DNA of 30,845 nt from Candidatus Nomurabacteria bacterium CG_4_9_14_0_2_um_filter_32_10. Its GTDB lineage: Bacteria > Patescibacteriota > Minisyncoccia > Phycocordibacterales > UBA9973. Numbering within the stretch: the stretch's first letter is position 1; the number at the start of each line of letters is the position of its first letter. This document shows positions 378-30,258 of the stretch, one piece after another. Under the pieces are notes generated by a model. That model worked only from the letters and a program-made list of their open reading frames with translations. It had not been told where the DNA came from and made no database searches. The position numbers were made by a program, and so were the translations under genes. The stretch covers positions 1 to 30,845 of the forward strand of contig PFRK01000037.1 of assembly GCA_002788475.1 (NCBI GenBank), read 5' to 3'.

Positions 378-1451
378 TTAAAAATTAAAAATTGGTGGAA
401 TAATACCGACACCGACTAAAGAATTAATTAAATTGAAAATTCCAAAAAATATTACAATGAGACCAGCCGTCTTAAAAAATATTCCAGATTGCGCTTTTTT
501 ATGAATTCCAAGAGAACTAAAACTCAAAAGTAAAAGCACTGGAAGTGTCCCAAGTGCAAAAGAAAACATTATTAACGATCCAGTTAAAAAACTCCCAGTA
601 GTCAAAGTATAAATCTGCATTGATTGAGTAAAGCCACAAGGTAGAAAAAATGTTACGACACCAACTAAAAGAGGAGTAAAAGTGTGATTAATATTCTTGA
701 GACCATGAACACGTTTACCAATAAAATTTGGAATAGTTGGCTGAAGTTTTTTAGCCCAAGGAAATATATCAAGGAGATTAATACCAAGAATAAGAAGAAC
801 AACTGCAACCAGAAAACTAAGAATAAATGTACTAGTTATACCAAGTTGAAATGCTGAACCAAGAGCACCAATAACACCACCTAGAACAAAAAATGATACA
901 AGCCGACCAGTATGAAATAAAATCTGTGGTCGTACTTTACTTGCTCTGAGTGGAATTGAAAGGTCATCTTCTTTGGCAAAATTTGCCGACATAGAAAGCA
1001 CAAGTCCTCCGACTACAGCCATACAGGTCGAGACAGAAGCAATAAGACCAATAACAAATGATGTACCATAACTAACTTTTGATGCATTTATTAAATTTAC
1101 AATACCAAGTTTTTGTAAAAGAATAAAAAAGACAATAAATGCTAAAGCTATAGGAATAGCAATCTTAAAATCAGACCACTTAACTAAATGATTTTGTTTT
1201 TCAAGAGATAACGTATAACCATGTGGTTTTAAGACTGTGGATAAATATTCAGCCACAGCTTCTGGTGTATCTCCTCCGCCAGAGGCGGATCCGCCTCTGG
1301 CGGAAAAATCTCCTGTTATTTCAACATTAAGATTTTTTAATGATGCTTTTGCACGAGAAATACCCGATACTTCACTCAATTCACTTTCAGTAAGTATTAC
1401 ACATGCATTACAATGCATACCGTTAACATGGAATGTATAAGTTTTTTGCAT
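378..1451 (-). CDS. HMA domain + TauE/SafE (DsbD_2-like) membrane protein
   Basis: N-terminal GMHCNAC metal-binding motif, then multiple TM helices with STCMAVVGG and FFLPCGFTQ motifs. Carries two in-frame insertions (939-962, 1275-1304). Confidence 0.85.
   Translation of the reverse strand: MQKTYTFHVNGMHCNACVILTESELSEVSGISRAKASLKNLNVEITGDFSARGGSASGGGDTPEAVAEYLSTVLKPHGYTLSLEKQNHLVKWSDFKIAIPIALAFIVFFILLQKLGIVNLINASKVSYGTSFVIGLIASVSTCMAVVGGLVLSMSANFAKEDDLSIPLRASKVRPQILFHTGRLVSFFVLGGVIGALGSAFQLGITSTFILSFLVAVVLLILGINLLDIFPWAKKLQPTIPNFIGKRVHGLKNINHTFTPLLVGVVTFFLPCGFTQSMQIYTLTTGSFLTGSLIMFSFALGTLPVLLLLSFSSLGIHKKAQSGIFFKTAGLIVIFFGIFNLINSLVGVGIIPPIFNF
1275..1304. repeat. Family A 30-bp palindrome, in frame in the HMA-TauE gene (SARGGSASGG)
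   Basis: Perfect palindrome tccgccagaggcggatccgcctctggcgga. Confidence 0.95.
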
Positions 1452-1515
1452 TATTCTATCATATAGTATCTCTGTAAAAATTCATAATCTACTTCAAAAA
1501 AACAATTCATGAAGA

Positions 1516-2427
1516 TTATATATTACATCCCCCACCTTGTTGCTGTTTTGGTAAAATAATTTGAGAAGAAACACTTTTATATCCTTGTGTACTGGAATAA
1601 TTAATACCTAATATTTCTTCTGAGTTCACATCTTTCCATTCAATACCTTTATTCTTCATATAAATCGCGATAGTTATATATGCATCAGAAAACCAATAAG
1701 AATTCACTACCAGAGCAGTTTTCCACATATCTTGTTCACTAACCCCTTGTGAAGCCATTAACTCCAAAAGTCCAAGCATCGCCATACCATGATTACAATC
1801 AGGGAAATGAGTTGAGTTACCACAACATGGTCTATATATACCTCTAGAAATTTTATCTACAAGAGTTTGCTGTTCTTTAGTTAATGTGACTAATGAATGA
1901 CGACTATAATGATCCATGGGCTTCCCTTTAGCTAATGTCCAACCACCAGTGGATGCAAAATTCCCTGCTTCGCTGTATGCTGGATTCATCATTTCTCCTT
2001 TCTCTAGAATAGGATTTTTATTAGCTAGTCCAAGCGCCCAAAACAAATTTAAGAGATACCCAGAATTTTCTTTAGTAATTTTTAGTTTGCCATTATTTTG
2101 ATCCAGAAGAAGTTTCTTATATTCATCAGTAAATTGTCCTCTACTTTCATATATCACTTTAAACTTTTTAGAATCAATAGTTCCGCTATTTATGAGTTGA
2201 ACTCCAAGATCTCCCCAGACTATCGGCAATGTCACGCCCTGAGATAGAAGTACATTTTCCTCTAAACTTGATAATAACAATGTTTTATCTTGATTATGCA
2301 CAATACCTATTTCTTGTTGCATTTTAACTTTTAACTCTTTTGTATATATCCAAGCACCAATAATAACTAAAAATATAATCAGAATATTTACAGGAAAAAT
2401 ATAATCTTTTGATAATTTTATTTTCAT
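1516..2427 (-). CDS. Membrane-anchored hypothetical protein with RPCCGNSTHFPDCNHG motif
   Basis: 303-aa ORF with one N-terminal TM segment, a Cys/His cluster and a C-terminal GGGC; lies inside the copper cluster. Confidence 0.75.
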   Translation of the reverse strand: MKIKLSKDYIFPVNILIIFLVIIGAWIYTKELKVKMQQEIGIVHNQDKTLLLSSLEENVLLSQGVTLPIVWGDLGVQLINSGTIDSKKFKVIYESRGQFTDEYKKLLLDQNNGKLKITKENSGYLLNLFWALGLANKNPILEKGEMMNPAYSEAGNFASTGGWTLAKGKPMDHYSRHSLVTLTKEQQTLVDKISRGIYRPCCGNSTHFPDCNHGMAMLGLLELMASQGVSEQDMWKTALVVNSYWFSDAYITIAIYMKNKGIEWKDVNSEEILGINYSSTQGYKSVSSQIILPKQQQGGGCNI

Positions 2428-2431
2428 ATAT

Positions 2432-3211
2432 TTAGATAAAGAAAATTAAGATACCAATAATAATCATTACGAATCCTGCCCACAACTTTACTTTACTTGT
2501 ATTGGTATTTTTCCATTCTTGAACCTTTGTAAGAAGAGTTTTATCTGAAGATATAAACAAAACGAAAACTAAAGGAATAATAAGAATAAGATTATAGAGA
2601 ATTAAATAACCAAACCCAGAGAAGTAAGTCACTTGATCACGAAGAAGTCCAATCACCATTAAGTATGGTCCCCCCATACAAGGAAATTGACAAATACCGA
2701 CAAAAATTCCAAGCCCAAATGCCGCCAGCATTGATGAACGTTCCATTAATTTCCCCATAGCTTTTTTAGTGAAAGAAGGAATTTTTAACTTAATCGGAAA
2801 ATTCGGAAAAAAATAATTAAGAAGATTTATAAGTCCAAAAACAATCAAAAGAGTTGCTCCTAATTTCCCCATAAAATGTGGGGTATTAAAAAGGTGCAAT
2901 ACTTTTAAAATTCCAAGACCAATAAGAAGATAAGAAACAAAAATTCCAGCAACATAAATTCCACCAATTTGTAATATCTTTTTTCTCGTCATTTGCATTC
3001 CAAAAAGAAAGGCAATAGTTATAAGAAGGATCGAAAACGAACAAGGATGGACACTATCTAGAAGCGCAGAAATTAACATAAGAGGCAATAACCACGTTCC
3101 TTGTTTACTAATGCTCCAGATTATAGATGAAGTTGCAGGATTATTTTTTAGAATAATTATGCTAATAATAGCAATAAGCAAGATACCAATTGTAATTATA
3201 ATTTTTTTCAT
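2432..3211 (-). CDS. CcdA/DsbD-family thiol-disulfide transfer membrane protein
   Basis: Multi-TM protein with two membrane Cys motifs, DSVHPCSF and CQFPCMGGPY. Confidence 0.75.
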   Translation of the reverse strand: MKKIIITIGILLIAIISIIILKNNPATSSIIWSISKQGTWLLPLMLISALLDSVHPCSFSILLITIAFLFGMQMTRKKILQIGGIYVAGIFVSYLLIGLGILKVLHLFNTPHFMGKLGATLLIVFGLINLLNYFFPNFPIKLKIPSFTKKAMGKLMERSSMLAAFGLGIFVGICQFPCMGGPYLMVIGLLRDQVTYFSGFGYLILYNLILIIPLVFVLFISSDKTLLTKVQEWKNTNTSKVKLWAGFVMIIIGILIFFI

Positions 3212-3216
3212 ATAAT

Positions 3217-3741
3217 TTAAGGTGTTACTCTCGCTTTAATCTCAAACTGAAGTTTATTACCTTCAGAATCTTCAAGATAAATAAATCTATCAATCATTCC
3301 AACACCAGCTGGACCATGAGCGTTAGGATCATATATAACTTCAATATCTGCAGACTCTCCAGCTTTTATTGTTTTATTTAATTTTGGAACAACTCCCATA
3401 CCTTGCATACCAAAAGGACCATTTTTATTTCCACCAGGCTCTATAAAGTAAGCACGTGTACACATACAAGAAGTAGTTAAACTCGGAATTAAAATATCTA
3501 GACTAGTTCCATTGGTAACTTTAAATGTTTTACTTACATCTCCATCTTTCATAGAGATTGTACCAAAATCATAGAGTATCTCTGATGTAATTAATCGGTC
3601 TTTTATTTCACTTATTTTACTTACTTTACTAGAATCACTAGGTAATGTTAATGACATTATATTTTTACTACCCCCATACATAAGTAATAACAATGCACCC
3701 AAAATAGCAAGTATCCATATAATTATTGTTTTTGTTTTCAT
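3217..3741 (-). CDS. DUF1573-like Ig-fold protein
   Basis: N-terminal signal/TM, YDFGTI, TSCMCT and YDPNAHG motifs. Confidence 0.7.
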   Translation of the reverse strand: MKTKTIIIWILAILGALLLLMYGGSKNIMSLTLPSDSSKVSKISEIKDRLITSEILYDFGTISMKDGDVSKTFKVTNGTSLDILIPSLTTSCMCTRAYFIEPGGNKNGPFGMQGMGVVPKLNKTIKAGESADIEVIYDPNAHGPAGVGMIDRFIYLEDSEGNKLQFEIKARVTP

Positions 3742-3834
3742 AAAATTTAAATTAAAATTAGATAAGAAAAAAATCTTTGACTAAAAGATTTTTTAAACAC
3801 CTAAAAAACCCCAAAAGAGCAATTAAGGTGAAAA

Positions 3835-4230
3835 TTATGAAAAAGATGGACTATTTTCTAAAAGAGAAAGCCAATTAATTATTCCTTGTTGAAAAGTATA
3901 TAATTTTTTATTATCCAGAGGATATTTCCATCTATAAAAATATCGTTTTTGATTTGAAGAGTTTTGTTCATTAAAAAAATATAAAATTATTCCTAGTATT
4001 AAGAAAGAAAAAATAAAAAAAGTCGAAAAAGTTATATTTGAAAATTGATGCCAATCATTTATATGATCAAGAATGTTTTCACATATTGAAGAACCATTTT
4101 GAGTATAAGGACAATTAACCATAGAAGTTTCAAACATATGATTGAATTCAAATAAACCAAAAATCCCTACACCTATGTAGGCAAGTAAAATAAAAATACT
4201 AATTAAAAATTTTTTATTTTGTAAAATCAT
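3835..4230 (-). CDS. Small membrane protein with Cys/His loop
   Basis: Two TM segments flank NHM...CPY...CENILDHINDWH. Confidence 0.6.
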   Translation of the reverse strand: MILQNKKFLISIFILLAYIGVGIFGLFEFNHMFETSMVNCPYTQNGSSICENILDHINDWHQFSNITFSTFFIFSFLILGIILYFFNEQNSSNQKRYFYRWKYPLDNKKLYTFQQGIINWLSLLENSPSFS

Positions 4231-10261: not shown

Positions 10262-11524
10262 TTAATCAAAGTAGTTTTTCAACCTTGCAATCTTTTCATG
10301 CTGGCGAAGTTTTTCATGAACTTTGGCTTCTATCTGACGGATACGTTCACGAGTCACTCCAAATTCTTCCCCTACTCTCTCTAAAGTATGCTGAATACCA
10401 TCAACCAATCCATAACGCATCTCAAGTATTTTACATTCTTTAGGATTAAGTTCATTTAAAACTTCACGAATTTGATCAGACAAAATTCTTCTAGAAGATT
10501 CTTGATCAGGACGTAAAATTTTGTCATCAGGAATGAAATTTTCAAGAGTTGATTTATCATCATCATCTCCTACTGGTTGTTCGAGAGAAATAGTTTCTTG
10601 ACTAATATTTTCAATCACATGAATTTTCTCAACAGGAATACCCATTTCTATGGCAATTTCTTCCGCCAATGGATCCCGACCCAAATCTTGACTAAGTTTT
10701 CTATATGTTTGTTTATATTTTGAAATAGTTTCAACCATATGTACTGGTATACGAATAGTTCTACTTTGATCGGCTAATGCGCGAGTAATAGATTGACGAA
10801 TCCACCAAGTAGCATAAGTAGAAAATTTATATCCTTTAGTCCAATCAAATTTTTCTACTGCTTTAAATAATCCCAAGTTCCCTTCTTGAATCAAATCCAA
10901 AAGACTAAGATTAGCACTCCTACCTACATATTTTTTAGCGATAGAAACAACCAAACGTAAATTAGCTCTAGCTAATAAATTTTTTGCTTCTACATCACCC
11001 AATTCTATTCGTTTTGCAAGATCTTTTTCATCAACTGCATGAATTAGTGCATATTGTCCTATTTCTTTTAAATACATTTGAATAGAATCATGTATAGTGG
11101 ATTTATTTAAATCTTTATCAGAAATATCATTATCTAAATTAAGTAAATTTCCACCTTCCAAAACATCTATCCCAGCAACTGCAAATTTCTCATAAAGTTC
11201 ATCTAAAAATAAAATATTATTTTCGATATTCGGAAAAGTTTTTAATATTTCATCATAAGTAATAAACCCTCTTTTACGTCCTTTCTCTATAAGTTTATTA
11301 GAAAGACGAGTAAATTCTTCCACTTTTTTCCCTCCTGTAACTAATTTTTTAACCTTTGTTTTTTTGACCTGCCTCCCCGCCAACCTCGCCGAGCCTAGGC
11401 GGGCTTTTTTTGATATTTTACGAGACTTCTTAGTTATTTTTTTAACTTTTTTAATTATTTTCTTAACCTTTTTCTTTTTTAAAATTTTCATTTTTTTCTT
11501 TAATTTTTTATTTTTTATTTTCAT
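10262..11524 (-). CDS. rpoD: RNA polymerase primary sigma factor
   Basis: Region 1.1-like [37 protein letters not shown] and [10 protein letters not shown]. Confidence 0.97.
11368..11403. repeat. 36-bp in-frame GC-rich insert in rpoD (peptide [13 protein letters not shown])
   Basis: Ends are CCCGCC...GGCAGG on the coding strand; removing it restores KK-V-KK. Confidence 0.8.
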
Positions 11525-11596: not shown

Positions 11597-13429
11597 TTAT
11601 TTCTTAAAACGATTATTTTTAATATTTTCCTTTCTTTTATTTATTTCGTTTATTTTTTTCAAAATTTCTATTTCTTCTTTCTTTCCTTTTAAATTTTGTA
11701 AATCCATCATTTTTTCCGCTAATTCTTCATTTAAATATTCCTCTTCTACATTCAGTAACATTTCATTTATATCTTTATCTAAGTTTTCATTATTTGAATA
11801 AAATTCTTCTGCCTCATAAATTAAATCTTCCTTAATATTTTTATAAATTTCTTTTGCTTTATTTAATTTTTTAAAGATTAACTCTGGGTCTATAATTCTA
11901 TTTTTTATACCTGTCTGTCCGATAGGAAGGCTCTCTTGCCAAAAAGCTATCCCTAAAAGTCTACGTTCAATAGGATCTTTCCTCATTTTTTTCCCTATAT
12001 TCTCTTTAGCAATTTTTGTTTCTTCAGTTTCAGATTTTAACTCCGATTCAACTTTTTTCAGATCTTCTATCAAAGCATCTTCAGCTATACCTGATTTATT
12101 ACTAATAAGTTTAATAAAATATGATTTTTCAATTGAACTTTCAATTGAATCAACATATGGTAATATTCTTTCTTTTATTTCTCTTCCTACTAATCTCGCT
12201 GAATCTAAACGATTTTTATGTGTATCTTCTTTATTATTATTTAAAATTTTATCTAAAATAAATTCTATTATATGTTTTGAATTGCGAATCGCTGCATGCC
12301 ATGCATCCACTCCCTGCCTACCGGCAGGCAGGCATTTTCCAGAAATTAAATCTGCTGGATCAACACCTTCTGGTAAAGAGACAACCTTTACATCCATTCC
12401 AAAAGAAAGAGCGATTTTGCCAGCTCGTGTTGATGCATTAAATCCTGCTCGATCAGCATCAAAAGCAAGAACTATATTAGTGGATAAACGACGTAATAAT
12501 CCTAAATTTGAAATAACATTTTCTTTGGAAACCGTAGAGTCTGAAAGTGCTGTACCTGAAGTAGCAACAGTATTTCTGAAACCAGCCTGATGAGATAAAA
12601 CTAAATCCATCTGTCCTTCAACTAAAATAGAAAAATTATTCTTACGAATAGAATCCTTCGCTTTATCTAATCCATAAAGAATTGCAGACTTACTAAAAAT
12701 TGGAGTATCAGGACTATTTAAATACTTGGCTTGTTCATATTTGAAATCTTCTCCACCAGAGGCGGATCCGCCTTCGGCGGAAAAAATCCTACCAGAAAAA
12801 GCAGTAATGCGACCACTCGAATCTGAAATTGGAAACATAATTCTACCTCGAAACCTATCATACATTCCCTTCTCAGTTTTTTTAGTTAGACCAGCAAGTT
12901 CAATCTCTTTATCAGAAAAACCATTTTTTTGAAGATAATTATATAATTCACGCCAATCATTTTTTACAAATCCAATCCTAAAATCTTTAATTGTTTTATC
13001 TTCTAAACCCCTTCCTTTCAAATAAAGAAGTACCTCTTTACTTCCTACTAAATTCTTTTCAAAGAATTTAGTAGATTCTTCCATAACTCTATACAATCTT
13101 TCTTTTTCACCTTCTTTTTCTCTACTAAATCCTGCAAGCGAAATTCCTGCTCTTTCAGATAAAATTTTTAATGCACCTTTAAAATCAAGCCCCTCAAATT
13201 CTTCTATAAAAGTAAAAATATCACCTTTAGCCCCACAACCAAAACAATAATAACTAGCACGATCTGGAGACACAAAAAAAGACGGAGTTTTTTCGTTATG
13301 AAAAGGGCATTTGGCTTTGAAGTTTGTACCTACCCGATCTAATTTTATGTAGGAAGAGACTATTTCTTCAATTGAAAGCCTCTCCTTAATTTGTTGAACC
13401 GGAGAGTTCGTCCCGTTAGAGATTTTCAT
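11597..13429 (-). CDS. dnaG: DNA primase
   Basis: CPFHNEKTPSF...YCFGC zinc-binding domain, FRGRIMFPI, KYLNSP, VEGQMD and AFDADRAG Toprim motifs. Confidence 0.97.
   Translation of the reverse strand: MKISNGTNSPVQQIKERLSIEEIVSSYIKLDRVGTNFKAKCPFHNEKTPSFFVSPDRASYYCFGCGAKGDIFTFIEEFEGLDFKGALKILSERAGISLAGFSREKEGEKERLYRVMEESTKFFEKNLVGSKEVLLYLKGRGLEDKTIKDFRIGFVKNDWRELYNYLQKNGFSDKEIELAGLTKKTEKGMYDRFRGRIMFPISDSSGRITAFSGRIFSAEGGSASGGEDFKYEQAKYLNSPDTPIFSKSAILYGLDKAKDSIRKNNFSILVEGQMDLVLSHQAGFRNTVATSGTALSDSTVSKENVISNLGLLRRLSTNIVLAFDADRAGFNASTRAGKIALSFGMDVKVVSLPEGVDPADLISGKCLPAGRQGVDAWHAAIRNSKHIIEFILDKILNNNKEDTHKNRLDSARLVGREIKERILPYVDSIESSIEKSYFIKLISNKSGIAEDALIEDLKKVESELKSETEETKIAKENIGKKMRKDPIERRLLGIAFWQESLPIGQTGIKNRIIDPELIFKKLNKAKEIYKNIKEDLIYEAEEFYSNNENLDKDINEMLLNVEEEYLNEELAEKMMDLQNLKGKKEEIEILKKINEINKRKENIKNNRFKK
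11910..11930. repeat. 21-bp degenerate CCTGCC/GGCAGG-family insert in dnaG (LPIGQTG)
   Basis: cctgtctgtccgataggaagg; removing it gives the in-frame WQES-IKN. Confidence 0.55.
12182..12211. repeat. Eroded copy of the rpoD insert in dnaG (RLDSARLVGR)
   Basis: 19/30 nt identical to 11372-11401; all 11 differences are transitions. Confidence 0.6.
12313..12332. repeat. 20-bp palindrome within a 7-codon insert in dnaG (CLPAGRQ)
   Basis: cctgcct-a-ccgg-c-aggcagg, one mismatch. Confidence 0.85.
12752..12781. repeat. Family A 30-bp insert in dnaG (SAEGGSASGG)
   Basis: tccaccagaggcggatccgccttcggcgga. Confidence 0.95.
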
Positions 13430-17108: not shown

Positions 17109-20100
17109 ATTTTTTCAAATTAATATCAAGCGCAAGTCCTCGTAAATAATTGAGTAATACATTGAACGATGCGGTAGAATTTGGTGGTTTAATAGGTTCA
17201 TTTTTGATAATGGAATCAAATGTCGCAGATCGACCAAGAATGTCATCAGATTTAATAGTAAGCATCTCTCGTAATGTATAAGCTGCACCATAACCTTCTA
17301 ATGCCCACACTTCCATTTCTCCAAATCTCTGTCCTCCACCTTGAGCTTTTCCTCCTAAAGGTTGTTGAGTGATAAGTGAATAAGGTCCAATAGAACGCAT
17401 ATGAATTTTATCTTCCACCATGTGATGAAGTTTCAACATATACATATAACCAACAGCAATATCTTGAGAAAAAGCTTCTCCTGTACGCCCATCAAAAAGT
17501 TTTAATCTTCCATTTTCTGGAAATCCAGCTTTTTTTAATTCTTCTTTTATTTCTTCATGTCCTGCTCCTAAAAATGGAGGAACAATAGCTTGATATCCTA
17601 ACGTGTTAGCCGCCATACCAAGATGCATTTCCAAAATTTGTCCCAAATTCATACGAGAAGGAACACCAAGTGGTGAAAGAATTATATCAACCGGTGTACC
17701 ATCTGTTGTATATGGCATATCTTCTTCTGGAAGAATTCTTGAAATAACTCCCTTATTGCCATGCCTACCAGAAAGTTTATCCCCAACTGAAATATTTCTA
17801 ATTTGAGCAACTTCGATAACAATTTTTTTAATAATACCCGCCTCAAGGGTATGACCTAAGTCACGAGAGAAAATTTTAATACCTATAATGCGACCACGTT
17901 TACCGTGCTCCATTCGTAATGATGTATCTTTAACATCACGTGCTTTTTCAGCAAAAATTGAACGTAATAATCTTTCTTCTGGAGTAAGTTCAGTTTCTCC
18001 TTTTGGTGTAATTTTACCAATTAAAATATCATTTTCTCTGACTTCAGCTCCAATACGAACAATACCATCTTCATCCAAATCTTTAAGTTTTAATTCTCCA
18101 ACATTTGGAATATCACGAGTAGTAATCTCAGGTCCAAGCTTAGTATCACGAACAATACAAACAAATTCTTCAAGATAAATAGATGTAAACTTACTCTTTT
18201 TTATAAGACGCTCAGAAATAATTATAGCGTCTTCATAATTTAACCCGAACCAAGATAAGAAAGCAATAAAGACATTCTGCCCAATTGAAATTTGCCCATC
18301 CACTGTGCTAGTGGTGTCAGCCAAGACATCTCCTTTCTTTATTTTTTGACCGACATCTACTGTAGGTCGTTGATGAAATGCAGAAAAATTATTGTTTCTT
18401 AAAAAATTAACAAGCGTGTAAGTTTTTTCTTTTTCTCCTTTAGTTTTAATTATTATTTTTCTAGCATCTAAATAAGATACAATTCCATCTTCTTCTGCAA
18501 TAACAATTCTTCCAGAATCTCGAGAAGCTAGTGTTTCTATACCCGTAGCTACAAGTGGAGCTTCAGGAAGAACGCAGGGTACAGCTTGTTTCTGCATGTT
18601 AGATCCCATAAGTGCTCTATTCGCATCATTATGTTCTAGAAAAGGAATCATAGAAGTTGCGATAGAAAAACCTTGGTTAGCTGCAACATCAATAAAATCA
18701 ACTTCTTCACGATGAATCATACCAGGATTAGTTTTTACTCTCGCAGCAACTTTTTCATCTGTTATCTTTCCATTTTCATCATAAGAAATTCCAGCGTGTG
18801 CAATATTATATTTTTCTTCCTCAAGTGCATTCAAATATTGAATTTCATTTGTGATTTTACCATTCTTAACTTTCATATATGGAGTTTCAATGATTCCAAA
18901 ATCATTTATTTTTGCATAAGTAGAAAGATGTAAAATAAGTCCAATGTTTGGACCCTCAGGTGTGTGAATAGGACAAACTCTTCCATAGTGGGAAGGATGC
19001 ACATCACGAACTTCAAGACCTGCACGCTCACGAGTAAGACCACCAGGTCCAAGAGCTGAAAGTAAACGTATATGCTCTATTTCAGCCAACACATTTTCTT
19101 GACTCATAAATTGTGAAAGCTGGTTTGTAGTAAAAAATTCTTTTATACGAGCTTGTAGTGGGCGCTGATTTATAATATGAATTGGCATCGCAGTATCAAC
19201 ATCAATAATAGACATTCTGTCTTGAATATTTCTCTTTATCTGCATCATACCAGTACGCACTTTTTGTTGAAGCATTTCTCCAACAAATCGAACACGTCTT
19301 TGACCTAGGTGATCTATATCATCAGACTTCGCACCTACTGTATTATTCAAAACAATAATATTTGTAATTACTGTCATTAAATCCTCTTTAGAAAGAGTCC
19401 TGCGAGCAAGTTCTTCATCATCTAATACTTTTTCAAAACGTTTATTAAATCTATATCGTCCAACAGGAGAAAGATCATATCTCTCAGGAGTAAACAAAGA
19501 ATTAATAAATTCTTTAGCATTATCAGCTGTCGCCATATCTCCATCTCTTAAACGTTTGTATATTTCAATATAAGCATCATTTAATGTCTTAGCTACGTCT
19601 TTTGCTAAACAAGCTTCAATCGCTTCTTTACATATATTTTCCAAGCCAGAGGCTTGTCCGCCTTTAGCGGAAAATACTTCTAACATCATTTCATTGGTGC
19701 TATAACCCATAACACGTAATAATGTAGTTGCAGGAAACTTTCTTTTTTTATCTATCCTTACATATATTGCACCATCAGATTCTGATTCTATCTCAATCCA
19801 AACTCCACGAGCTGGAATAATCTTTGCACCAAAATATTTTTTACCTTTACTTTCAGATTCCGTAAAAAAAACTCCGAAAGAACGTGCGAGTTGCGGCACA
19901 ATAATACGTTCTACTCCATTTATAATAAAAGTCCCGTGTGGAGTCATCAAAGGAATCTCAGACATAAAAATCTCTTGTTCTTTGACAGTACCTAAAATTT
20001 TATTCGTTAACTTTACACGAGTTTTAAGAAGTCCTTGATATGAGAGTTTATTTATTTTAGCTTCATTTTCTTCACAATTTGGTTCACTAATAGAAAAAGA

Positions 20101-21711: not shown

Positions 21712-21761
21712 TCCACCTGAGGCAGCCTGTCCGCCTTTGGCGGAGATCAGCCTCTGGCTGA
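21712..21761. repeat. Intergenic cluster of family A 15-bp hairpin units
   Basis: tccgcc-ttt-ggcgga (21730-21744), tcagcc-tct-ggctga (21747-21761) and a degenerate unit at 21712-21726. Confidence 0.85.
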
Positions 21762-21822: not shown

Positions 21823-21860
21823 CTCGCCAAAGGCGAGCAAGCTTGCCTGCCTCTGGCAGG
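21823..21860. repeat. Composite double hairpin directly after the rpsP stop
   Basis: ctcgcc-aaa-ggcgag, caagcttg, cctgcc-tct-ggcagg. Confidence 0.85.
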
Positions 21861-23125: not shown

Positions 23126-25093
23126 ATGAAGAACAAAAAACAGAAAATATATAAAGCACTGCAAGGTACCATATCTATTACCTCAAAGGGCACTGGATAT
23201 GTCAAAGTTCCTGATTATGAACAAGATCCAGAGATTGATTTTAAAGATCTAAATACAGCACTTCATGGAGATATTGTTGAAATTATATTAAATAAAAAAG
23301 GATATAGACGCCTTACAGGAAGAGTATCAAGAATAATTTCACGTGCAAAGATTGGTTTTGTGGGAGTGCTGGAGGAGGTCAGTCCTCCTTCAGGAGGACT
23401 GACCTCCTCCAAATTCTTTCTAAAACCTGACGATACAAAGATGTATACAGATATTCTGATACCAGAAAAATTTTTAAAGGATGCAAAAACCGGCCTGCCT
23501 GCGCAGGCAGGACAAAAAGTTTATATAGAAATAACTTCTTGGACAGATGCATCTAAAGCACCAGAAGGTAAAGTAATAAAAATTCTAGGTCAACCCGGAG
23601 AAAATAGTGCAGAAATGCATGCTATTGCAATAGAAAAAGGTTTTGACAGTGATTTGCCACAAAAGGTAGAAGAAGAAGCAAAAAAAATTAAAACTCTAGG
23701 AATTAAAGAAGGAGACTTCGTTGAACGACGTGATTTTAGAAAAACTCTTACCTTTACTATCGACCCTGATGATGCAAAAGATTTTGATGATGCTATTTCT
23801 TTTAAAGAAATAGATAGCAATACATATGAAATAGGCATACATATAGCCGACGTAACACATTATGTAAAAATTGGGAGTGAATTAGATAAAGAAGCAAGAA
23901 ATAGAGGTACTTCCGTATATTTAGTCGATAGAACAATACCAATGCTTCCAGAGGCACTTTCAAATGACTTATGTTCTTTAATACCAAACAAAGATAGGCT
24001 CACCATGAGTGCTGTTTTTATTTTAGATAAAAATGCAAAAGTTAAAAAGGAATGGTTTGGAAAAACTATCATACATTCTCAAAAAAGATTCACTTATGAA
24101 GAGGCAGAAGAAACTATCAAGAAAGATTCAAAGCCATTACATAAAGAACTTCTTATTTTAAATAATCTAGCAAAAAAATTAACAAAAGAAAGATTTGCAA
24201 ATGGAGCAATATCTCTCGAGCAGGAAGAAGTAAAATTTATTTTAGATAAAAATGGAGTACCAATAAAAGTTATAAAAAAAGAACGAGGTAATTCTAACAA
24301 ATTAATAGAAGAATTTATGCTTTTAGCAAACAAAAAAGTAGCGGAAACAATTTCAAAAGGTACAAAGAAAGAAGGTGGTGTATTTGTTTACCGTATTCAC
24401 GACAATCCTAGTAAAGAAAAAATGACTGACTTAGCTTTCTTTTTAAAAAGTTTAGGATATAAAATATCTTTAGTAGATGGAGTTATACCTACATATGAAA
24501 TAAATAGTCTTTTAAAGAGTCTAGAAGGAAAAAATGAAGAAGATACAGTAAATCGAGCCGTCATACGTTCTATGGCAAAAGCAATTTATTCTACCAAAAA
24601 TATCGGACATTACGGTTTAGCATTTGAATATTATGCTCATTTTACTTCCCCTATTAGAAGATACCCAGACATAGTGGTACATAGACTTTTAAACGATTAT
24701 CTACAAGGAATAAAAGTAGGAAAAGAAAAATTAAATATATACGAAGAAATTTCAATAAAAGCATCAGAAAGAGAGAAATTTGCTTCCGATGCTGAACAAG
24801 CTTCTATAAAATATAAACAAGTTGAATATATGTCTTCTCGTATTACAGAAGTTTTCGAAGGAATCATAAGTGGAATAACAGAATGGGGTATCTATGTAGA
24901 AGAGAAAGAAACAAAATGTGAAGGACTAGTGCGAGTGCGAGACATGGAAGATGGCTTCTATGTTTTTAATGAAAAGAAATTAGAATTAGTCGGACAAAAG
25001 AATAAAAAAAGATATCGTTTAGGTGATCAAGTCAAAATAAAAATTAAAAATATTGATCTAAAAAGAAAAACGATAGATTACACATTAGTATGA
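23126..25093 (+). CDS. rnr: Ribonuclease R (RNB family)
   Basis: TIDPDDAKDFDDA catalytic motif, HFTSPIRRYPD, C-terminal S1 domain. Confidence 0.95.
   Translation: MKNKKQKIYKALQGTISITSKGTGYVKVPDYEQDPEIDFKDLNTALHGDIVEIILNKKGYRRLTGRVSRIISRAKIGFVGVLEEVSPPSGGLTSSKFFLKPDDTKMYTDILIPEKFLKDAKTGLPAQAGQKVYIEITSWTDASKAPEGKVIKILGQPGENSAEMHAIAIEKGFDSDLPQKVEEEAKKIKTLGIKEGDFVERRDFRKTLTFTIDPDDAKDFDDAISFKEIDSNTYEIGIHIADVTHYVKIGSELDKEARNRGTSVYLVDRTIPMLPEALSNDLCSLIPNKDRLTMSAVFILDKNAKVKKEWFGKTIIHSQKRFTYEEAEETIKKDSKPLHKELLILNNLAKKLTKERFANGAISLEQEEVKFILDKNGVPIKVIKKERGNSNKLIEEFMLLANKKVAETISKGTKKEGGVFVYRIHDNPSKEKMTDLAFFLKSLGYKISLVDGVIPTYEINSLLKSLEGKNEEDTVNRAVIRSMAKAIYSTKNIGHYGLAFEYYAHFTSPIRRYPDIVVHRLLNDYLQGIKVGKEKLNIYEEISIKASEREKFASDAEQASIKYKQVEYMSSRITEVFEGIISGITEWGIYVEEKETKCEGLVRVRDMEDGFYVFNEKKLELVGQKNKKRYRLGDQVKIKIKNIDLKRKTIDYTLV
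23370..23411. repeat. 42-bp palindrome in frame in rnr (EEVSPPSGGLTSS)
   Basis: Perfect 20-bp arms tggaggaggtcagtcctcct / aggaggactgacctcctcca around TC. Confidence 0.95.
23494..23511. repeat. 18-bp perfect palindrome in frame in rnr (GLPAQAG)
   Basis: cctgcctgcgcaggcagg; removing it restores K-T-G-Q-K. Confidence 0.95.
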
Positions 25094-26976
25094 AATATAA
25101 TATCAATCAAAAAATAAAATTAGCATTTTGGATAATATCTGCTGTTATTATCGGTATATTTTTTTCATCTCTCATTTTTAAAAATATAAAATATGAAAAA
25201 ATAATAAATCCAAGTGAAAATATAGCGATAGCCATAGAATCTTTAACCTCACAAGAAACGACACCAAAATATTTTTATTTTATAAAAGATCAAAATAAAA
25301 AACCAAAAGTTTCAGCTTCTGCTTATTTAGTTGGCGATTTAGACACAGGGGAAATTATTCTGACAAAAAATCAAGAAAAAGAATTTCCACTAGCTTCAGT
25401 TTCTAAACTTATGACTGCTTATGTAGCAACAGAATTAATGGATGAAAATAATATAGCTCAAGTCTCAAAAAAGGCATTGTCTACTTATGGAGAAAATGGT
25501 AATTTCAAAATCGGAGAAAAAATAAAAATCTCAGATCTTATATATCCCCTACTTTTAGAATCAAGTAATGATGCTGCAGAAATAATAGCCGAGTATTTCG
25601 ATAGAGATACTTTTATAAAAAAAATGAATCAGGCGGTAGAAAAAATAGAATTATCTAAAACTTTCTTCGATGATCCAAGTGGGCTTTCAGAAAAAAATAA
25701 ATCAACTGTTTTCGATATGTTTAAGCTAGCGGGATATTTAAATCAAAAAAATCCAGATTTATTCAAAACAACTACGAATCGTAGCTATTCTAATAAAAAA
25801 CACAACTGGTTTAGTAATAATCAATTTTTGCGGGAAGAAGGATATTTAGGTGGTAAAAGTGGATATACGGATCCTGCTCTACAAACAGTAATTTCTCTCT
25901 TTTCGGTACCTCTTTCAGAAACTGGAACACGTAATATAGCTATTACACTCTTGCAAAGTAAAGATCGTTACAAGGATGTAGAAAGTATTTTAAAATATTT
26001 AAATAAAAATATATATTATGGTGGAGAAGCTGATGCTAATACTCTATGGGTAAAAGAAAAAGCTGGTATACCTGAAATTAAAGATCCTGACTTCGTAACT
26101 CTCCTTTTTGGTGGAGACATAATGCTTGATCGTGGAGTCAAAAATTCTGTGAATAAAAACTTTAATAAAGATTATCTAGCACTTTTTGAAAAGTTAAACA
26201 TCTTAAAAAAATCTGATATTACTTTTGCTAATTTAGAAGGCCCAGCATCTGATCTAGGTAAAGATATGCGTAATTTATATTCATTTAGAATGGACTCTTC
26301 CATTATACCGGCTCTCAAAGGAGCAGGATTTTCTGTTGTTTCAATCGCAAATAATCACGTCGGAGACTGGGGGCGTGAAGCTTATGCTGATACATTAATG
26401 AGATTAAAGGAAAATGAAATTTCATATACAGGTGGAGGTATAAATGCAAATGAAGTAGAAACACCAGTAATTATAGAAAAATATGGGATCAAAATAGGAT
26501 ATTTAGGATTCTCTGATGTCGGTCCTGTATGGATGAAAGCAACCGAAGATCAAGCTGGCATACTACTAGCAAGTAACCCACGTTTTGATGAAATAATACA
26601 AAATGCTTCAAAACAAGTTGACCATCTAATAATTTCATTCCATTTCGGAGATGAATATAAAACTAAACATAACACTAGACAAGAATATCTAGCACATAAA
26701 GCGATAGATGCTGGAGCAAAAATAGTAATTGGGCATCATCCTCATGTGATAGAAGATATAGAAGTTTATAAAAATGGTTTTATAGCTTATTCATTAGGCA
26801 ACTTTATTTTTGATCAAGGTTTTTCAACAAATACAATGGAAGGGATGCTTCTTGAAATGAAATTAAATAAACTTGGAGAAATAACTATAAAGAAAAATAT
26901 AGTCAAACTAAATAAATTTTTTCAACCAGATAAAGTAATTATCGGTAAAGAAGAAAAAATAATTTTTAAGAAATAA
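25090..26976 (+). CDS. Fusion of S11 D-Ala-D-Ala carboxypeptidase and CapA (PGA_cap) domain
   Basis: SxxK (SVSK), SxN (SSN) and KSG motifs, then GGDIMLDR, NLEG, ANNH, GHHPH and YSLGNFIF. ATGA overlap with the rnr stop. Confidence 0.9.
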   Translation: MKYNINQKIKLAFWIISAVIIGIFFSSLIFKNIKYEKIINPSENIAIAIESLTSQETTPKYFYFIKDQNKKPKVSASAYLVGDLDTGEIILTKNQEKEFPLASVSKLMTAYVATELMDENNIAQVSKKALSTYGENGNFKIGEKIKISDLIYPLLLESSNDAAEIIAEYFDRDTFIKKMNQAVEKIELSKTFFDDPSGLSEKNKSTVFDMFKLAGYLNQKNPDLFKTTTNRSYSNKKHNWFSNNQFLREEGYLGGKSGYTDPALQTVISLFSVPLSETGTRNIAITLLQSKDRYKDVESILKYLNKNIYYGGEADANTLWVKEKAGIPEIKDPDFVTLLFGGDIMLDRGVKNSVNKNFNKDYLALFEKLNILKKSDITFANLEGPASDLGKDMRNLYSFRMDSSIIPALKGAGFSVVSIANNHVGDWGREAYADTLMRLKENEISYTGGGINANEVETPVIIEKYGIKIGYLGFSDVGPVWMKATEDQAGILLASNPRFDEIIQNASKQVDHLIISFHFGDEYKTKHNTRQEYLAHKAIDAGAKIVIGHHPHVIEDIEVYKNGFIAYSLGNFIFDQGFSTNTMEGMLLEMKLNKLGEITIKKNIVKLNKFFQPDKVIIGKEEKIIFKK

Positions 26977-27035
26977 AAGTAAAACAAAAAATCAAACAAC
27001 GTTATGTTATGTGTTTTTCTTTTATTATAAATTTA

Positions 27036-27377
27036 TTATCCTTTCCACGCAGACATTATAAAAAGCAAAATAAGTATCATAGGTACAAAAACAAATAATA
27101 TAATTAATAAAAAAGAAATACCAACTACTTTGGAAGTCTTTTTTAGGGCACTATTTTCTTGTCCAGGTAATATTATGCCTTTTTTTTCCAATCTGATGTT
27201 TCGTATTCCACGAATAAATAAAAGTATTCCATATAACAAAAGTAATATAAATGGTAAAATAACCAAAAGTTCCCAAAAGTTTGTCGGTATTTTTGTATTT
27301 ATTAGTGAAAAAACTCCAAAAAAAGTAAGAATCATTCCAATTAATATAAAAACCTCATTTTTATAATCTTTTTTCAT
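27036..27377 (-). CDS. Small multi-TM hypothetical protein
   Basis: 113 aa with three hydrophobic segments. Confidence 0.6.
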   Translation of the reverse strand: MKKDYKNEVFILIGMILTFFGVFSLINTKIPTNFWELLVILPFILLLLYGILLFIRGIRNIRLEKKGIILPGQENSALKKTSKVVGISFLLIILFVFVPMILILLFIMSAWKG

Positions 27378-27457
27378 AATAATATTATTAAATTAATAAT
27401 TACCCTTTACTTTTTTATCATATCATATATATTCAAAGTTAATCATTAAAAATTACA

Positions 27458-27479
27458 CATTTAAGCCATGGCTGATATG
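27458..27479. repeat. CCATGG-centred palindrome downstream of the cas2-like gene
   Basis: Perfect core agccatggct (27464-27473) with imperfect cat...atg extension. Confidence 0.5.
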
Positions 27480-27490
27480 AGGATAAATGG

Positions 27491-27871
27491 CTATAATTTC
27501 TTTATATAAGATTTTGCTAGTTTAAATGTCTTGCAGTTATCTCCTATTTTTATTTCTTTTAAGTAATCTAAAAAGTCTTTTGGTAATGGAGAAGGCCCTA
27601 CCCAAACACTTTTTTGAATCATTATATAACCAAACTTTATTAGTTGTCTTCGAAACCAATCTCTTTCTTTCTTTTTATCAGATGGAATGTCATACATCAC
27701 AATCAAATTTTTAGAAGAATCTTTATTAAAAGGAGAAATAAAGGTAACATTATAGAAAGTCCTCTTTCTATTTTCTTTTTTTGCACGACTTTTTCTCCCT
27801 TCTGAAAAAATCGGAATACCAAAAGAATTTACTTCTATCCCTTTATAAAATAATCTCTTTTTTGAATTCAT
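27491..27871 (-). CDS. Solo Cas2-like / PaaX-central-domain protein
   Basis: LIVMYDIP...ERDWFRRQL..FGYIMIQKSVW matches the Cas2/VapD/PaaX ferredoxin-fold pattern (YDI and QxSV). No cas1 and no array in the window. Confidence 0.8.
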   Translation of the reverse strand: MNSKKRLFYKGIEVNSFGIPIFSEGRKSRAKKENRKRTFYNVTFISPFNKDSSKNLIVMYDIPSDKKKERDWFRRQLIKFGYIMIQKSVWVGPSPLPKDFLDYLKEIKIGDNCKTFKLAKSYIKKL

Positions 27872-27878
27872 ATAAAAA

Positions 27879-27887
27879 ACTATATCA
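27879..27887 (-). promoter_or_regulatory. Extended -10 (TGATATAGT) 7 nt before the cas2-like ATG
   Basis: TGn + TAnnnT. Confidence 0.5.
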
Positions 27888-27889
27888 CA

Positions 27890-27925
27890 AAATCCCCATA
27901 TACACCATGGCGTATATGGGGATTT
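27890..27925. repeat. 36-bp CCATGG-centred palindrome upstream of the cas2-like gene
   Basis: aaatccccatatacaccatggcgtatatggggattt, 17 of 18 pairs matched. Confidence 0.9.
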
Positions 27926-27951
27926 ATTACAATTCTTTTACAACTTCCTAT

Positions 27952-30258
27952 TTATTTTGCAATAGCTACTGCATCGTCTAATTTGACAGAAAGAAGCTTG
28001 GAAGATCCATCATTCCCTATAGTTACCCCATATAACGTACCAGCACGAGACATTGTCTCACGATTATGAGTGACAACAATAAGCTGAGAGGCCCCTGAGA
28101 GTTTTTCTAACATATCTCCATATTTGCGAGAATTTGATTCATCCAAAGCAGCATCCGTTTCATCAAGAACTAAGAATGGTGGTGGATTTACTTGTGACAT
28201 AGCAAAAAGAAGAGCAATAGATGTGAGTGATCTTTCCCCTCCTGAGAGTGCATTTAATTCTTTTACTTTTTTATGTGGGAGAGAAACATTTATCTCAATA
28301 CCCTGTTCAAAAACAATTTCATCTTCATCTCCTTCCTCTCCTTCTTCTTCCTTTCCTCTCTTCTTTTTATTTTCAGTTGTAACAGAGAGAAAGCCTGTTC
28401 CACCATCAAACATTAATGAGAAAAATTTATCAAATTCTATATTTATTTTTTTAATACCTTCTTTAAACTCTACATCAATTTTTTCTTTCAAATCCACCAT
28501 AAGTGTACGAAGTGACTCTATACTTACGACTAAATCTTCCATTTCTTTTGCCAAAAAATTATCTCTCTCTGAAACTTCTTCAAACTCTTTTATTATCTCA
28601 GACCCACCACCCAAACCAACATCTTCCAATTTTATCTTAATGCGTTCGATTTTTCGTCTTAACTCCTCCTGTTCTATTCTGTTTATTATGACCTCTCCGC
28701 CAAAGGCGGATCCGCCTTCAGTGGAAAAATTTTTGTAAGTTAATATCTCACTGCCAATAAGTATTTCACCTTCTTTTATCTCATTTTTAAAGGCTTCTGA
28801 TTCTTTTGATAAAGACTCCTCTTTTATCGATATGAGCCCCAAAGAAGAAGATAATTCTTGCTGTTTAACCCTAAAATTAAACTTTTCTTTTTCTTTTAAA
28901 TGTAAAGCCTCATTTTCTTGGTTAATCTCTTTTTTTAATATTTCTATTTTTTCAAAAATTTTCTTTTCTTCATCTGTAATATTTTGCATTTCAAGCAAAA
29001 TTTCTTGCTGATTCTTTTTTAACTCAGAATTCTCTGAAAATATAGTTTCTGAATGGTCTGGCTGGGATAGGGACCCAGAGAACCGAGAACCTGAAGAAAT
29101 TATATTTCCAGAGAATTCTTTTAAAATATTCTGAATTCTCAAAAGAATAATCTTGATTTCTGCTGCACTATCTTCTACAATAGCTATTTCTATTTCAGAA
29201 TTAATTTCATCAAATATAGCCTTTATTTCTTCAGGGTTTTTTATCGAAACTTCTGGAATTTTTTCACTTCTCCTCTCTTCCATTTCTATCATTCCTTCGA
29301 TTCTTCCCAATTTACGTTCTATTTCATTCTTAACATTACGAATTTCACTTATTTTTTTCTCAAAGATTTTTAATTCTTTTTCCCCGCCTACATCGCTATG
29401 CATAGCATTGTAGGCAGGTTTTTCATTTTCTTCTATATCTGAAATGTTTTTATTTATATCTCCTAATTCTATCTCTATTTTGCTCTTTTCACTAAGTAAA
29501 CTGGACTGCTCTTTTTCTAAATAAATACTTTCTTTCTTTAAATATTCTTTATATAAAGATAAAAGTGACACCTGCATTTCTTTTGCTTTCTCAAATTTAT
29601 CTACTTGTTTTTTTAAAAAATTCAAATGTGGAGCATTTTCTCGACGTAAAAGAGAGACCTCCTTCATATTATTAGTAGTCCTTTCTAGTTTACGTTGTGC
29701 TTCTTTTATTTTATATTGGTAAATTTTAAGTCCAAGAGCATCTTCTACCATCTCTCTCCTATCTCTAGGAGATGCATTCAATATCCTATCTGCTTCACCT
29801 TGGGAAATGATGTGATGCCCAGAAGAACCAATATTAACTGATGATAAAAGATTATTAATATCTTTTAATCTCACCTCCGAGCCATTCAAAATGTATTTAT
29901 TTAACCCATCAGAAAAAACTTCACGAGAAATTGAGATGACATCGTAATTTAAATTAAAATTTTCACCTGTTTCATTAGAAAGTTTAAAAACTTTATCAGA
30001 GTTATCAAAATATATCGTAACAACTGCACGTGAACTTTTTGGCAAATTTTTAGATCCTTTAAAAATTAAATCAGATCCTGATGTTCCACGCATTGACTTC
30101 ATTGATTGTTCTCCTAAAACAAAGCGAAGTGCTTCTACAACATTTGACTTACCAGATCCATTTGGACCTACTATAGAAATAATAGGATTCTGGAATTCCA
30201 AAATTATTTTTTTTGAAAAAGATTTAAAACCATTAATTTCAAGATTCTTTAATCGCAT
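27952..30258 (-). CDS. smc: Short SMC-family ATPase (768 aa)
   Basis: GPNGSGKSN Walker A, LSGGE signature, FLVLDETDAALD Walker B/D-loop and VVTHN; adjacent to rnc. Confidence 0.9.
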   Translation of the reverse strand: MRLKNLEINGFKSFSKKIILEFQNPIISIVGPNGSGKSNVVEALRFVLGEQSMKSMRGTSGSDLIFKGSKNLPKSSRAVVTIYFDNSDKVFKLSNETGENFNLNYDVISISREVFSDGLNKYILNGSEVRLKDINNLLSSVNIGSSGHHIISQGEADRILNASPRDRREMVEDALGLKIYQYKIKEAQRKLERTTNNMKEVSLLRRENAPHLNFLKKQVDKFEKAKEMQVSLLSLYKEYLKKESIYLEKEQSSLLSEKSKIEIELGDINKNISDIEENEKPAYNAMHSDVGGEKELKIFEKKISEIRNVKNEIERKLGRIEGMIEMEERRSEKIPEVSIKNPEEIKAIFDEINSEIEIAIVEDSAAEIKIILLRIQNILKEFSGNIISSGSRFSGSLSQPDHSETIFSENSELKKNQQEILLEMQNITDEEKKIFEKIEILKKEINQENEALHLKEKEKFNFRVKQQELSSSLGLISIKEESLSKESEAFKNEIKEGEILIGSEILTYKNFSTEGGSAFGGEVIINRIEQEELRRKIERIKIKLEDVGLGGGSEIIKEFEEVSERDNFLAKEMEDLVVSIESLRTLMVDLKEKIDVEFKEGIKKINIEFDKFFSLMFDGGTGFLSVTTENKKKRGKEEEGEEGDEDEIVFEQGIEINVSLPHKKVKELNALSGGERSLTSIALLFAMSQVNPPPFLVLDETDAALDESNSRKYGDMLEKLSGASQLIVVTHNRETMSRAGTLYGVTIGNDGSSKLLSVKLDDAVAIAK
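28696..28725. repeat. Family A 30-bp insert in smc (STEGGSAFGG)
   Basis: tccgccaaaggcggatccgccttcagtgga. Confidence 0.9.
29026..29119. repeat. Inverted-repeat-bounded segment inside smc
   Basis: 29026-29050 pairs with 29095-29119 (23/25); GC-rich core with ctggg/cccag hairpin and gagaacc x2. Confidence 0.55.
29383..29418. repeat. 36-bp palindromic insert in smc (PAYNAMHSDVGG)
   Basis: 15 of 18 pairs matched, centred on ATGCAT; ends are CCTGCC/GGCGGG on the coding strand; exactly 12 codons. Confidence 0.9.

Follow-up and report, generated by a model that had tools for sequence, protein, structure and literature searches.

Twelve short segments interrupt the coding regions of a 30,845-nt stretch of DNA from Candidatus Nomurabacteria bacterium CG_4_9_14_0_2_um_filter_32_10 (contig PFRK01000037.1, assembly GCA_002788475.1), hereafter the window, and comparison with orthologues revealed that each of them is a real in-frame insertion that most or all congeners lack. 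The segments probably, though by no means certainly, belong to several families of miniature non-autonomous repeats of the repetitive extragenic palindrome (REP) or REP doublet forming hairpin (REPIN) type, which would be moved in trans by hairpin-specific enzymes. The window is the complete contig C35 of a 606-kb assembly (58 contigs, 31.7% GC), and 90% of the genome is coding. Below, G000 is the genome under study, G006 is a sister species, G010 is another congener, L171 is a metagenome contig, and P0025, P0026, P0077, P0098, P0120, and P0124 are individual DnaG relatives used in the comparisons.

Nine of the segments are clear palindromes that fall into repeat families, and the other three (939-962, 11910-11930, and 12191-12211) are not palindromic today, in line with the original prediction, according to which most were GC-rich palindromes and three were eroded. 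Family A is built from a hairpin of 15 nt, TCCGCC-N3-GGCGGA, whose GC-rich stem of 6 bp closes a loop of 3 nt; most often, two such units form an inverted doublet of 30 nt. The stem variants of the family covary (TCAGCC/GGCTGA and CCAGCC/GGCTGG), and the loops of a doublet are often complementary to each other. Family B1 is a perfect 18-nt palindrome, CCTGCCTGCGCAGGCAGG; family B2 is a near-palindrome of 20/21 nt with one conserved asymmetric position; family C comprises hairpins of the GGAGGAGG type, 25 or 42 nt long; and family D is the 36-nt element found in rpoD. Unit lengths of 15, 18, 21, 30, 36, and 42 nt are intrinsically multiples of three. The length of every insert in the window had been claimed to be a multiple of three, and it is, although the insert at 12191 measures 24 nt (12191-12214), one codon more than the 21 nt reported. 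The intergenic relatives of 32 and 38 nt that had been described are also present, as doublets at 21730-21761 and 21823-21860.

Pfam searches identified the host genes as an HMA + DsbD_2 membrane protein (378-1451), RpoD, DnaG, RpoC, RpoB, RNase R, and an SMC-type ATPase. The first of these had been named TauE-like; it is indeed a membrane protein gene with inserts, but its Pfam identity is HMA/DsbD_2. The copies in the window and the tract associated with one of them are as follows.

939..962, minus strand: eroded older insert of 8 residues, LSIPLRAS, left without a family, in the HMA/DsbD_2 protein; absent from G006, PSIPLEAS in L171.
1230..1274, minus strand: hyper-diverged tract directly 3′ (in the coding sense) of the 1275-1304 insert, from the L171 comparison.
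1275..1304, minus strand: family A doublet that forms a perfect palindrome of 30 nt and encodes SARGGSASGG in the HMA/DsbD_2 protein.
11368..11403, minus strand: family D, 36 nt, a nested partial palindrome encoding a 12-residue peptide in the Lys-rich N-terminal tail of RpoD.
11910..11930, minus strand: eroded family B2, 21 nt, LPIGQTG in DnaG; matches B2 at 16/20 positions.
12191..12214, minus strand: eroded family D core, 24 nt, NRLDSARL in DnaG, a relative of the rpoD peptide.
12314..12334, minus strand: family B2, 21 nt, CLPAGRQ in DnaG.
12752..12781, minus strand: family A doublet, 80% self-complementary, SAEGGSASGG in DnaG, after the conserved Phe of GRIF.
19642..19671, minus strand: eroded family A heterodimer, SAKGGQASGL in RpoB, after a conserved Phe.
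21730..21761, no strand assigned: intergenic family A doublet of TCCGCC and TCAGCC units with a 2-nt spacer, 32 nt.
21823..21860, no strand assigned: intergenic doublet of related hairpins with 6-bp stems and 3-nt loops (6-3-6 hairpins), CTCGCC and CCTGCC stems, 8-nt spacer, 38 nt.
23370..23411, plus strand: family C nested palindrome, 42 nt, 95% self-complementary, (L)EEVSPPSGGLTSS in RNase R.
23494..23511, plus strand: family B1, a perfect 18-nt palindrome that adds the 6 residues GLPAQA to RNase R.
28696..28725, minus strand: family A doublet, 80% self-complementary, STEGGSAFGG in SMC, after the conserved Phe of KNF.
29383..29418, minus strand: 36-nt palindrome of the CCTGCCTAC...GTAGGCGGG type, 83% self-complementary, PAYNAMHSDVGG in the SMC coiled coil.

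When DnaG is compared across 18 same-genus genomes, congeners turn out to lack all four dnaG segments, and the RpoB, RNase R, and SMC segments are missing from the four or five congeners with which these proteins were compared. The 36-nt insert in RpoD is private to G000 among 18 same-genus or same-order dnaG-rpoD loci (L008-L026) where RpoD was recovered. When the syntenic regions of G000, G006, and G010 were compared three ways, these elements accounted for essentially all clean insertions of at least three residues that are private to G000 in well-aligned genes. Congeners hold private inserts of their own that are likewise palindromic. At the rnr site occupied by 23370-23411 in the window, G006 holds a different palindromic insert, and the 29383-29418 palindrome resembles the rnr inserts of G006 and G010. 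An empty site for the 1275-1304 insert exists in L171, which is 93% identical to G000 in the DNA of this gene and is without precisely these 30 nt; TTT and GG meet at the junction, with no target duplication. The 939-962 insert is common to L171 and G000.

Exact insert-bearing proteins recur on 8, 9, and 14 independent metagenome contigs, and near-identical variants retain every insert. An assembly artefact is therefore ruled out. As to the age of the copies, the eroded DnaG inserts at 11910 and 12191 are both absent from the closest relative (86% nucleotide identity), while the well-preserved family A copy in dnaG is common to relatives at 79 to 82% nucleotide identity. Judging from these alignments, insert erosion is therefore no simple clock of age, and some copies appear to be maintained, re-homogenised, re-inserted, or transferred.

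The families are far from being confined to the window. Across the genome, family A is represented by 44 full and 14 near units in 40 groups, 18 of which are zero-spacer inverted doublets, and 39 units bear TCCGCC, TCAGCC, or CCAGCC stems. The 40 groups are distributed over coding sequences (25), intergenic DNA (14), and a gene edge (1); per base, intergenic DNA is still ~5-fold richer in them. GC-rich hairpin clusters number 213 genome-wide versus 53 in a first-order Markov shuffle, and perfect 6-3-6 GC hairpins number 83 versus 3 in the null. A search of the window against Rfam gave no match. CRISPR-like hairpins and terminator-only hairpins were considered and rejected as a reading of the segments, as were introns or bypass elements, given that the lengths are multiples of three and the frames are open. 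A further dispersed repeat of ~40 nt or more, unrelated to families A to D, is mostly intergenic and consists of the paired blocks GGTCCCCTGTCC and GACTCCGAGGGCGAAGGCTC; it is found at C22:930-965, C23:6947-6982, C27:6618-6660, C41:1987-2028, C42:3551-3592, and C54:2711-2746.

Within coding sequences, each family is read in essentially one frame. Family A is in phase 0 in 21 of 25 copies (p=2.6e-7), where it reads S-A-x-G-G, or P-A-x-G-W for the CCAGCC unit, and phase 0 is also used by 12 of the 16 copies within long open reading frames of five genomes that represent four further GTDB families in the order (p=8e-4). All five B1 copies in coding sequences read LPAQA in one frame, followed by Gly in four cases, and both B2 copies are in one frame, LPAGRQ. 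The TCAGCC...GGCTGA variant yields TGA in phase 0 and was seen only in intergenic DNA or in other phases. The frame pattern is consistent with elements that insert randomly or semi-randomly in a 90%-coding genome and then face strong purifying selection.

Structural placement was assessed for a single protein, DnaG, for which an AlphaFold (AF2) model (mean pLDDT 70.5) puts the inserts in coil or low-confidence regions (218-234, 364-373, 401-406, and 501-514). The loop with the family A copy (218-234) has pLDDT <50, and the 11910-11930 insert is modelled as coil. The proposal that several families create new peptide loops agrees with the private inserts seen in the genes for RpoD, DnaG, RpoB, RNase R, SMC, and the DsbD_2/HMA protein, their predicted placement in loops coming from the DnaG model.

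Most family A doublets of the genome itself are preceded, in coding orientation, by TTT, which in dnaG, rpoB, and smc is a conserved ancestral Phe codon; in other genomes, the flanks are mostly xTT...AAA. Elsewhere, the ends of elements coincide with pre-existing sequence. At dnaG 12191-12214, the inserted 24 nt adjoin the 5′ side of a conserved GCGGGGAGG-type sequence (Ala-Gly-Arg) that is the right arm of the palindrome, and the 36-nt family D copy in rpoD includes the 9-mer GCGGGGAGG. At the rnr B1 site, the last bases of the element coincide with an ancestral GCAGG. Because the ends at the dnaG family D and rnr B1 sites coincide with sequence that was already there, end homology may, to judge from the sequences, have a part in target choice.

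The same loops are used repeatedly. Among 63 DnaG sequences at ≥70% identity, there are ~25 insertion hot spots, at which the same peptides occur at the same sites in phylogenetically scattered members. The peptide xRLDSARQ occupies one site in four sequences of 71 to 73% identity, closer relatives being without it, and GC-rich versions are present at the 12191-12214 site in P0098 and P0124. GKCLPAGRQ is found at one site in three sequences, SAEGGSASGG at one site as five intact and two decayed copies, and EPCLPAGR at one site as six intact copies and one variant; P0077 has LPIEQAG at the site of the 11910-11930 insert. In two loci from different GTDB families, L074 (G174) and L077 (G035), both at 1498-1527, orthologues carry a family A heterodimer at the same site, between VVRIF and DV(I/V)HV, with the unit order opposite, which therefore indicates recurrent insertion or flipping of the palindrome.

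Elements can be conserved better than their surroundings. The dnaG gene of G000 is 82 and 79% identical to those of P0025 and P0026, and the family A copy differs from theirs at 1 and 2 positions per 30 nt, versus 7 and 6 in the adjacent 21 nt (Fisher p=0.006 and 0.05, respectively). The B2 insert at 12314-12334 is identical between G000 and P0120 at 27/27 nt, while the flanks differ at 5/24 and the proteins are 71% identical. Next to the 1275-1304 insert, only about half of the bases in the 45-nt tract 1230-1274 match L171 (estimated by eye), versus 93% for the whole gene. The tract is diverged even at synonymous sites, and the differences include Ser TCC versus AGT and one lost codon. Since the protein sequence of G006 agrees with L171, the divergence lies on the G000 side; recombination with a diverged allele or error-prone repair is a possible source. 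A similar diverged “scar” is observed after the dnaG family A copy (EDFKYEQ versus EDDGKS).

The family A unit is widespread in the phylum. It was detected in 100 of 201 sampled genomes of the order, at 0 to 38 copies each (6 genomes with a reversed-pattern control), and in 108 of 251 sampled genomes of the phylum, at up to 71 copies (4 genomes with the control), its 12-nt stem recurring at hundreds of unrelated loci. The identical 30-nt doublet is present in two other GTDB families (in G186 and in G078 and G180). In G297, nearly all 60 family A copies share one loop, and a recent burst is therefore suggested. A 30-nt doublet of family A was also noticed in two IMG/VR contigs classed as viral, with 53 to 55% GC (L178:4886-4915 and L179:390-419), the L179 copy being in phase 0 of a long open frame.

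The original prediction stated that the window holds no mobilising transposase gene, and we also found none there; the candidates lie in other parts of the genome. There, six diverged Y1_Tnp genes, whose open frames span 224 to 251 residues, score above the PF01797 cut-off, have visible HFH and YIHxNP motifs, and find their best NCBIfam match, below cut-off, in NF047646 (REP-associated tyrosine transposase, RAYT). They do not fit the pattern of IS200/IS605 insertion sequences, in which a tnpA of ~150 residues, often accompanied by tnpB, lies between different left-end and right-end hairpins and is present as several identical copies: here, the frames are longer, all six differ, and the flanking hairpins are symmetric. 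Each gene has its own cognate hairpin at one or both ends (both in 5 of 6), in a REPtron layout, and most Y1 homologues in the order and phylum are likewise flanked by cognate hairpins. The cognate hairpin families are ACAGGC, ACAGGG, GGAAGC, and three longer ones, the first three sharing the 6-3-6 geometry of family A.

Several of these RAYT hairpins occur inside genes. That of the C6 gene, ACAGGC-N3-GCCTGT, forms an in-frame doublet in dnaG of G006 and is found in other coding sequences of G006 and G010, and ACAGGG and GGAAGC hairpins have dispersed copies inside coding sequences of G000. The open reading frame of the RAYT-type gene C13:13583-14278 contains the hairpin that also flanks this gene, GGAAGC-N3-GCTTCC, twice; REP insertions within tnpA_REP genes are known from subclass 2.4 (Quentin 2018, PMC6006769). 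Because the C6 hairpin sits in dnaG of G006 and other RAYT hairpins sit in coding sequences, there is, at the level of sequence, a direct link between RAYT-type genes and in-frame hairpin inserts of this kind. Of the 44 genomes with three or more family A units, 38 have a Y1 gene, versus 83 of the 157 others, and all 16 genomes with seven or more units have one (hand tallies with no phylogeny correction).

The genome also encodes three stand-alone GIY-YIG proteins of ~90 residues (Pfam GIY-YIG domain), whose nearest solved relatives are UPF0213 proteins. The C28 gene ends in a 6-3-6 hairpin, and the C33 gene is bracketed by the inverted halves of that hairpin (inverted 9-mers). In G254 (L189), a GIY-YIG gene has zero-spacer TCxxxC-N3-GxxxGA doublets on both sides, with the geometry of family A and its junction between GA and TC, and a GIY-YIG gene of G239 has a TCCGCC unit 91 nt upstream. 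Overall, 6-3-6 hairpins are 4.5-fold enriched within 150 nt of GIY-YIG genes. A 14-nt motif, ATTTCGTACGGGAT, which is identical to the 3′ end (LFRTG-stop) of the GIY-YIG gene C28:65-325, has 13 copies, mostly intergenic, on contigs C13, C14, C16, C22, C28, C31, C37, C48, C49, C51, and C53; these copies may be remnants or target sites of the C28 gene cassette.

In the reading that we favor, hairpins would form on single-stranded DNA, and hairpin-specific enzymes with genes at other loci of the genome would cut and paste them in trans. These enzymes would most likely be the six RAYT-type HUH-Y1 transposases bracketed by cognate hairpins, with the small GIY-YIG (UPF0213/Ssn-like) nucleases as possible participants. 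In a 90%-coding genome, selection would retain only inserts that are a multiple of three long, stop-free, and benign. Insert-bearing alleles would then spread between lineages via homologous recombination, and the inserts would be either kept homogeneous or left to decay under AT-biased mutation.

Several observations weigh against this account. In G000 and ten high-copy genomes, neither a Y1 gene nor a GIY-YIG gene with flanking hairpins of family A, B, C, or D was found, and in two high-copy genomes, G297 and G239, a search for a gene enclosed by a pair of family A units returned ordinary genes only. The co-occurrence of Y1 and GIY-YIG genes with family A is weak evidence since both are common in the order (121 and 188 of 201 genomes, respectively). 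Family A is without the GTAG or CGTC tag of REPs, and B2 has GTAG only inside its apical part. Same-site inserts, element identity across diverged genes, and the hyper-diverged flank could reflect recombination or copying guided by end homology rather than transposition. Presence/absence polymorphism was looked for among near-identical strains, represented by independent contigs, and none was seen. The view that the elements are actively colonising the proteome therefore holds in part: the empty site in the 93%-identity relative marks the youngest dated event, but the inserts are fixed in all near-identical strains seen.

It is possible, though we doubt it, that TCCGCC-N3-GGCGGA and its sister families are a selfish element found across the candidate phyla radiation (CPR) and adapted to genes, being a multiple of three long, stop-free, and read as a Gly/Ser linker. 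Such an element would be inserted repeatedly and site-specifically (at TTT^ or by end homology) into the same protein loops of different lineages, kept homogeneous at the DNA level, and moved by an unrecognised enzyme. It is unlikely that the double hairpins are instead Ssn-related motifs whose partner is a stand-alone GIY-YIG single-stranded DNA (ssDNA) nuclease and not Y1, with cutting that influences recombination or transformation and perhaps dispersal. The hairpin-ended and hairpin-bracketed genes among the three in the genome, the doublets of family A geometry in G254, the upstream unit in G239, and the enrichment of 6-3-6 hairpins near GIY-YIG genes all favor this view, and Ssn is known to cleave ssDNA near flanking hairpin repeats and to modulate transformation (Chenal 2025, PMC11893778). 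However, the nearest solved relatives of these genes are UPF0213 proteins, none of those in G000 adjoins families A to D, GIY-YIG genes are present in 188 of 201 genomes whatever the family A copy number, and DNA insertion by Ssn is not known. We consider it improbable that new sites are rare and that homologous recombination, e.g., after natural transformation, moves insert alleles, possibly with a hairpin bias like that of uptake signals. This would accommodate the identical peptides at identical sites in scattered DnaG sequences, the B2 insert that is 27/27 identical between 71%-identical proteins, the dnaG family A copy that is much better conserved than its flank (Fisher p=0.006), and the tract hyper-diverged at synonymous sites that adjoins 1275-1304; in Neisseria, NTS/Ssn are tied to transformation (PMC11893778). 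It leaves at least 25 family A copies in unrelated genes and the TTT target unexplained, however, and known uptake sequences are far denser than these copies (~0.1 per kb); several unrelated families also coexist.

Local generation of the palindromes by template switching, fold-back synthesis, or copying primed on short end homology, with no dedicated enzyme, is very improbable. The pre-existing GCGGGGAGG that equals the right arm at the dnaG family D site and recurs as the same 9-mer in rpoD, the end of the rnr B1 element at the ancestral GCAGG, and the frequent mutual complementarity of family A loops would suit such a process, but local copying would yield locus-specific arms, whereas the same 12-nt stem is found at hundreds of unrelated loci in 108 of 251 phylum genomes, and the insert boundaries are exact. 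It is hardly credible that the inserts are kept by selection as features of the host rather than being selfish DNA, either as flexible Gly/Ser linkers or as RNA/DNA hairpins at which transcription or translation would pause. One could cite for it an old copy that is conserved at the DNA level, a single reading frame per family, and the location of copies in informational genes; yet orthologue presence is patchy and varies by species, many copies are eroded, identical elements occur in intergenic DNA and in unrelated proteins, and purifying selection alone predicts the frame bias.

The elements share much with REP/bacterial interspersed mosaic element/REPIN repeats and their RAYT (TnpA_REP) partners (Nunvar 2010, PMC2817692; Bertels & Rainey 2011, PMC3116915; Ton-Hoang 2012, PMC3333891; Quentin 2018, PMC6006769): short GC-rich hairpins, inverted doublets, several families per genome, Y1 genes bracketed by their own hairpins (REPtron), and copy number that is patchy between relatives. 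In contrast to REPs, units here are 15 nt rather than 20 to 40 nt, six RAYT paralogues are present in a 0.6-Mb genome, and a cognate RAYT flanked by families A to D was not found in G000 and ten other genomes. Furthermore, REPs are mostly extragenic, whereas here 25 of 40 family A groups lie in coding sequences, with a strict reading frame and lengths that are multiples of three. REPs inside genes, often genes for replication and repair, had already been described, with RPE-4 and RPE-6 among them (Di Nocera 2013, PMC3733652). The idea therefore has more precedent than had been assumed. As with intragenic REPs and Rickettsia palindromic elements, the palindromes are in frame in housekeeping (replication/repair) genes, would add peptide segments, and are commonly dimers. 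The host here is a CPR bacterium, whereas the intragenic REPs on record come from Proteobacteria, Opitutus, and Rickettsia, where they are the lesser part of families that are mainly extragenic (PMC3733652). The elements described here also differ in being much shorter, in using one frame per family, and in the recurrent use of the same loops.

Rickettsia palindromic elements resemble ours in their common in-frame insertion and differ in size (15 to 42 nt here), sequence, and host. RPE-1, which Ogata et al. are said to have described in 2000, is reportedly ~100 to 150 bp long. The GC clusters of yeast mitochondria are organellar, have other sequences, and usually come with target-site duplications; they are not known to have a HUH or GIY-YIG partner. 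Along with other organellar hairpin elements, they are similar to our elements as GC-rich palindromes in a compact AT-rich genome that are occasionally in frame (PMC8811140, PMC2800124). Ssn with its NTS and Ssn-related motifs (Chenal 2025, PMC11893778) is similar in that small stand-alone GIY-YIG genes lie by dispersed hairpins and neighboring divergence or recombination is raised, but NTS are ~30 nt long, carry a CGTC-type tag, are intergenic, and were studied in Neisseria, while the GIY-YIG genes here are putative members of the family. That report makes no mention of Patescibacteria, “candidate phyla,” or in-frame or intragenic copies. We found no description of in-frame hairpin repeats in CPR in the literature that was searched, and Quentin 2018 (PMC6006769) does not mention CPR. 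Compared with known REPs, the new features are the minimal 15-nt module, the untagged main family, the mostly intragenic groups, the strict frame, and the recurrent loops in CPR hosts.

Relatives of RpoB and DnaG carry the label Candidatus Nomurabacteria or Paceibacterota, inside Patescibacteria, and groundwater and aquifer metagenome runs contain the sequence; the host is an ultra-small bacterium of groundwater. The SMC-type protein (27952-30258) has 768 residues. Since the open frames of same-genus orthologues span 749 to 783 residues, this short SMC is a conserved form of the genus and not a truncation.

CPR/Patescibacteria account for much of bacterial diversity, yet little is known of the forces that act on their very small, gene-dense genomes. 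In the conserved proteins of the window, almost all clean insertions specific to the lineage are hairpin elements. If this is general, mini-REPs would be a major, previously unreported source of protein length variation in Patescibacteria, and if a CPR-wide in-gene selfish element exists, it would be a main source of their protein indels. The inserts can distort marker-gene alignments and phylogenies. They would give a simple system for the study of DNA movement by hairpin-specific ssDNA enzymes (RAYT and Ssn-like) and, if general, would naturally map which loops of RNA polymerase, primase, RNase R, and SMC tolerate insertion.

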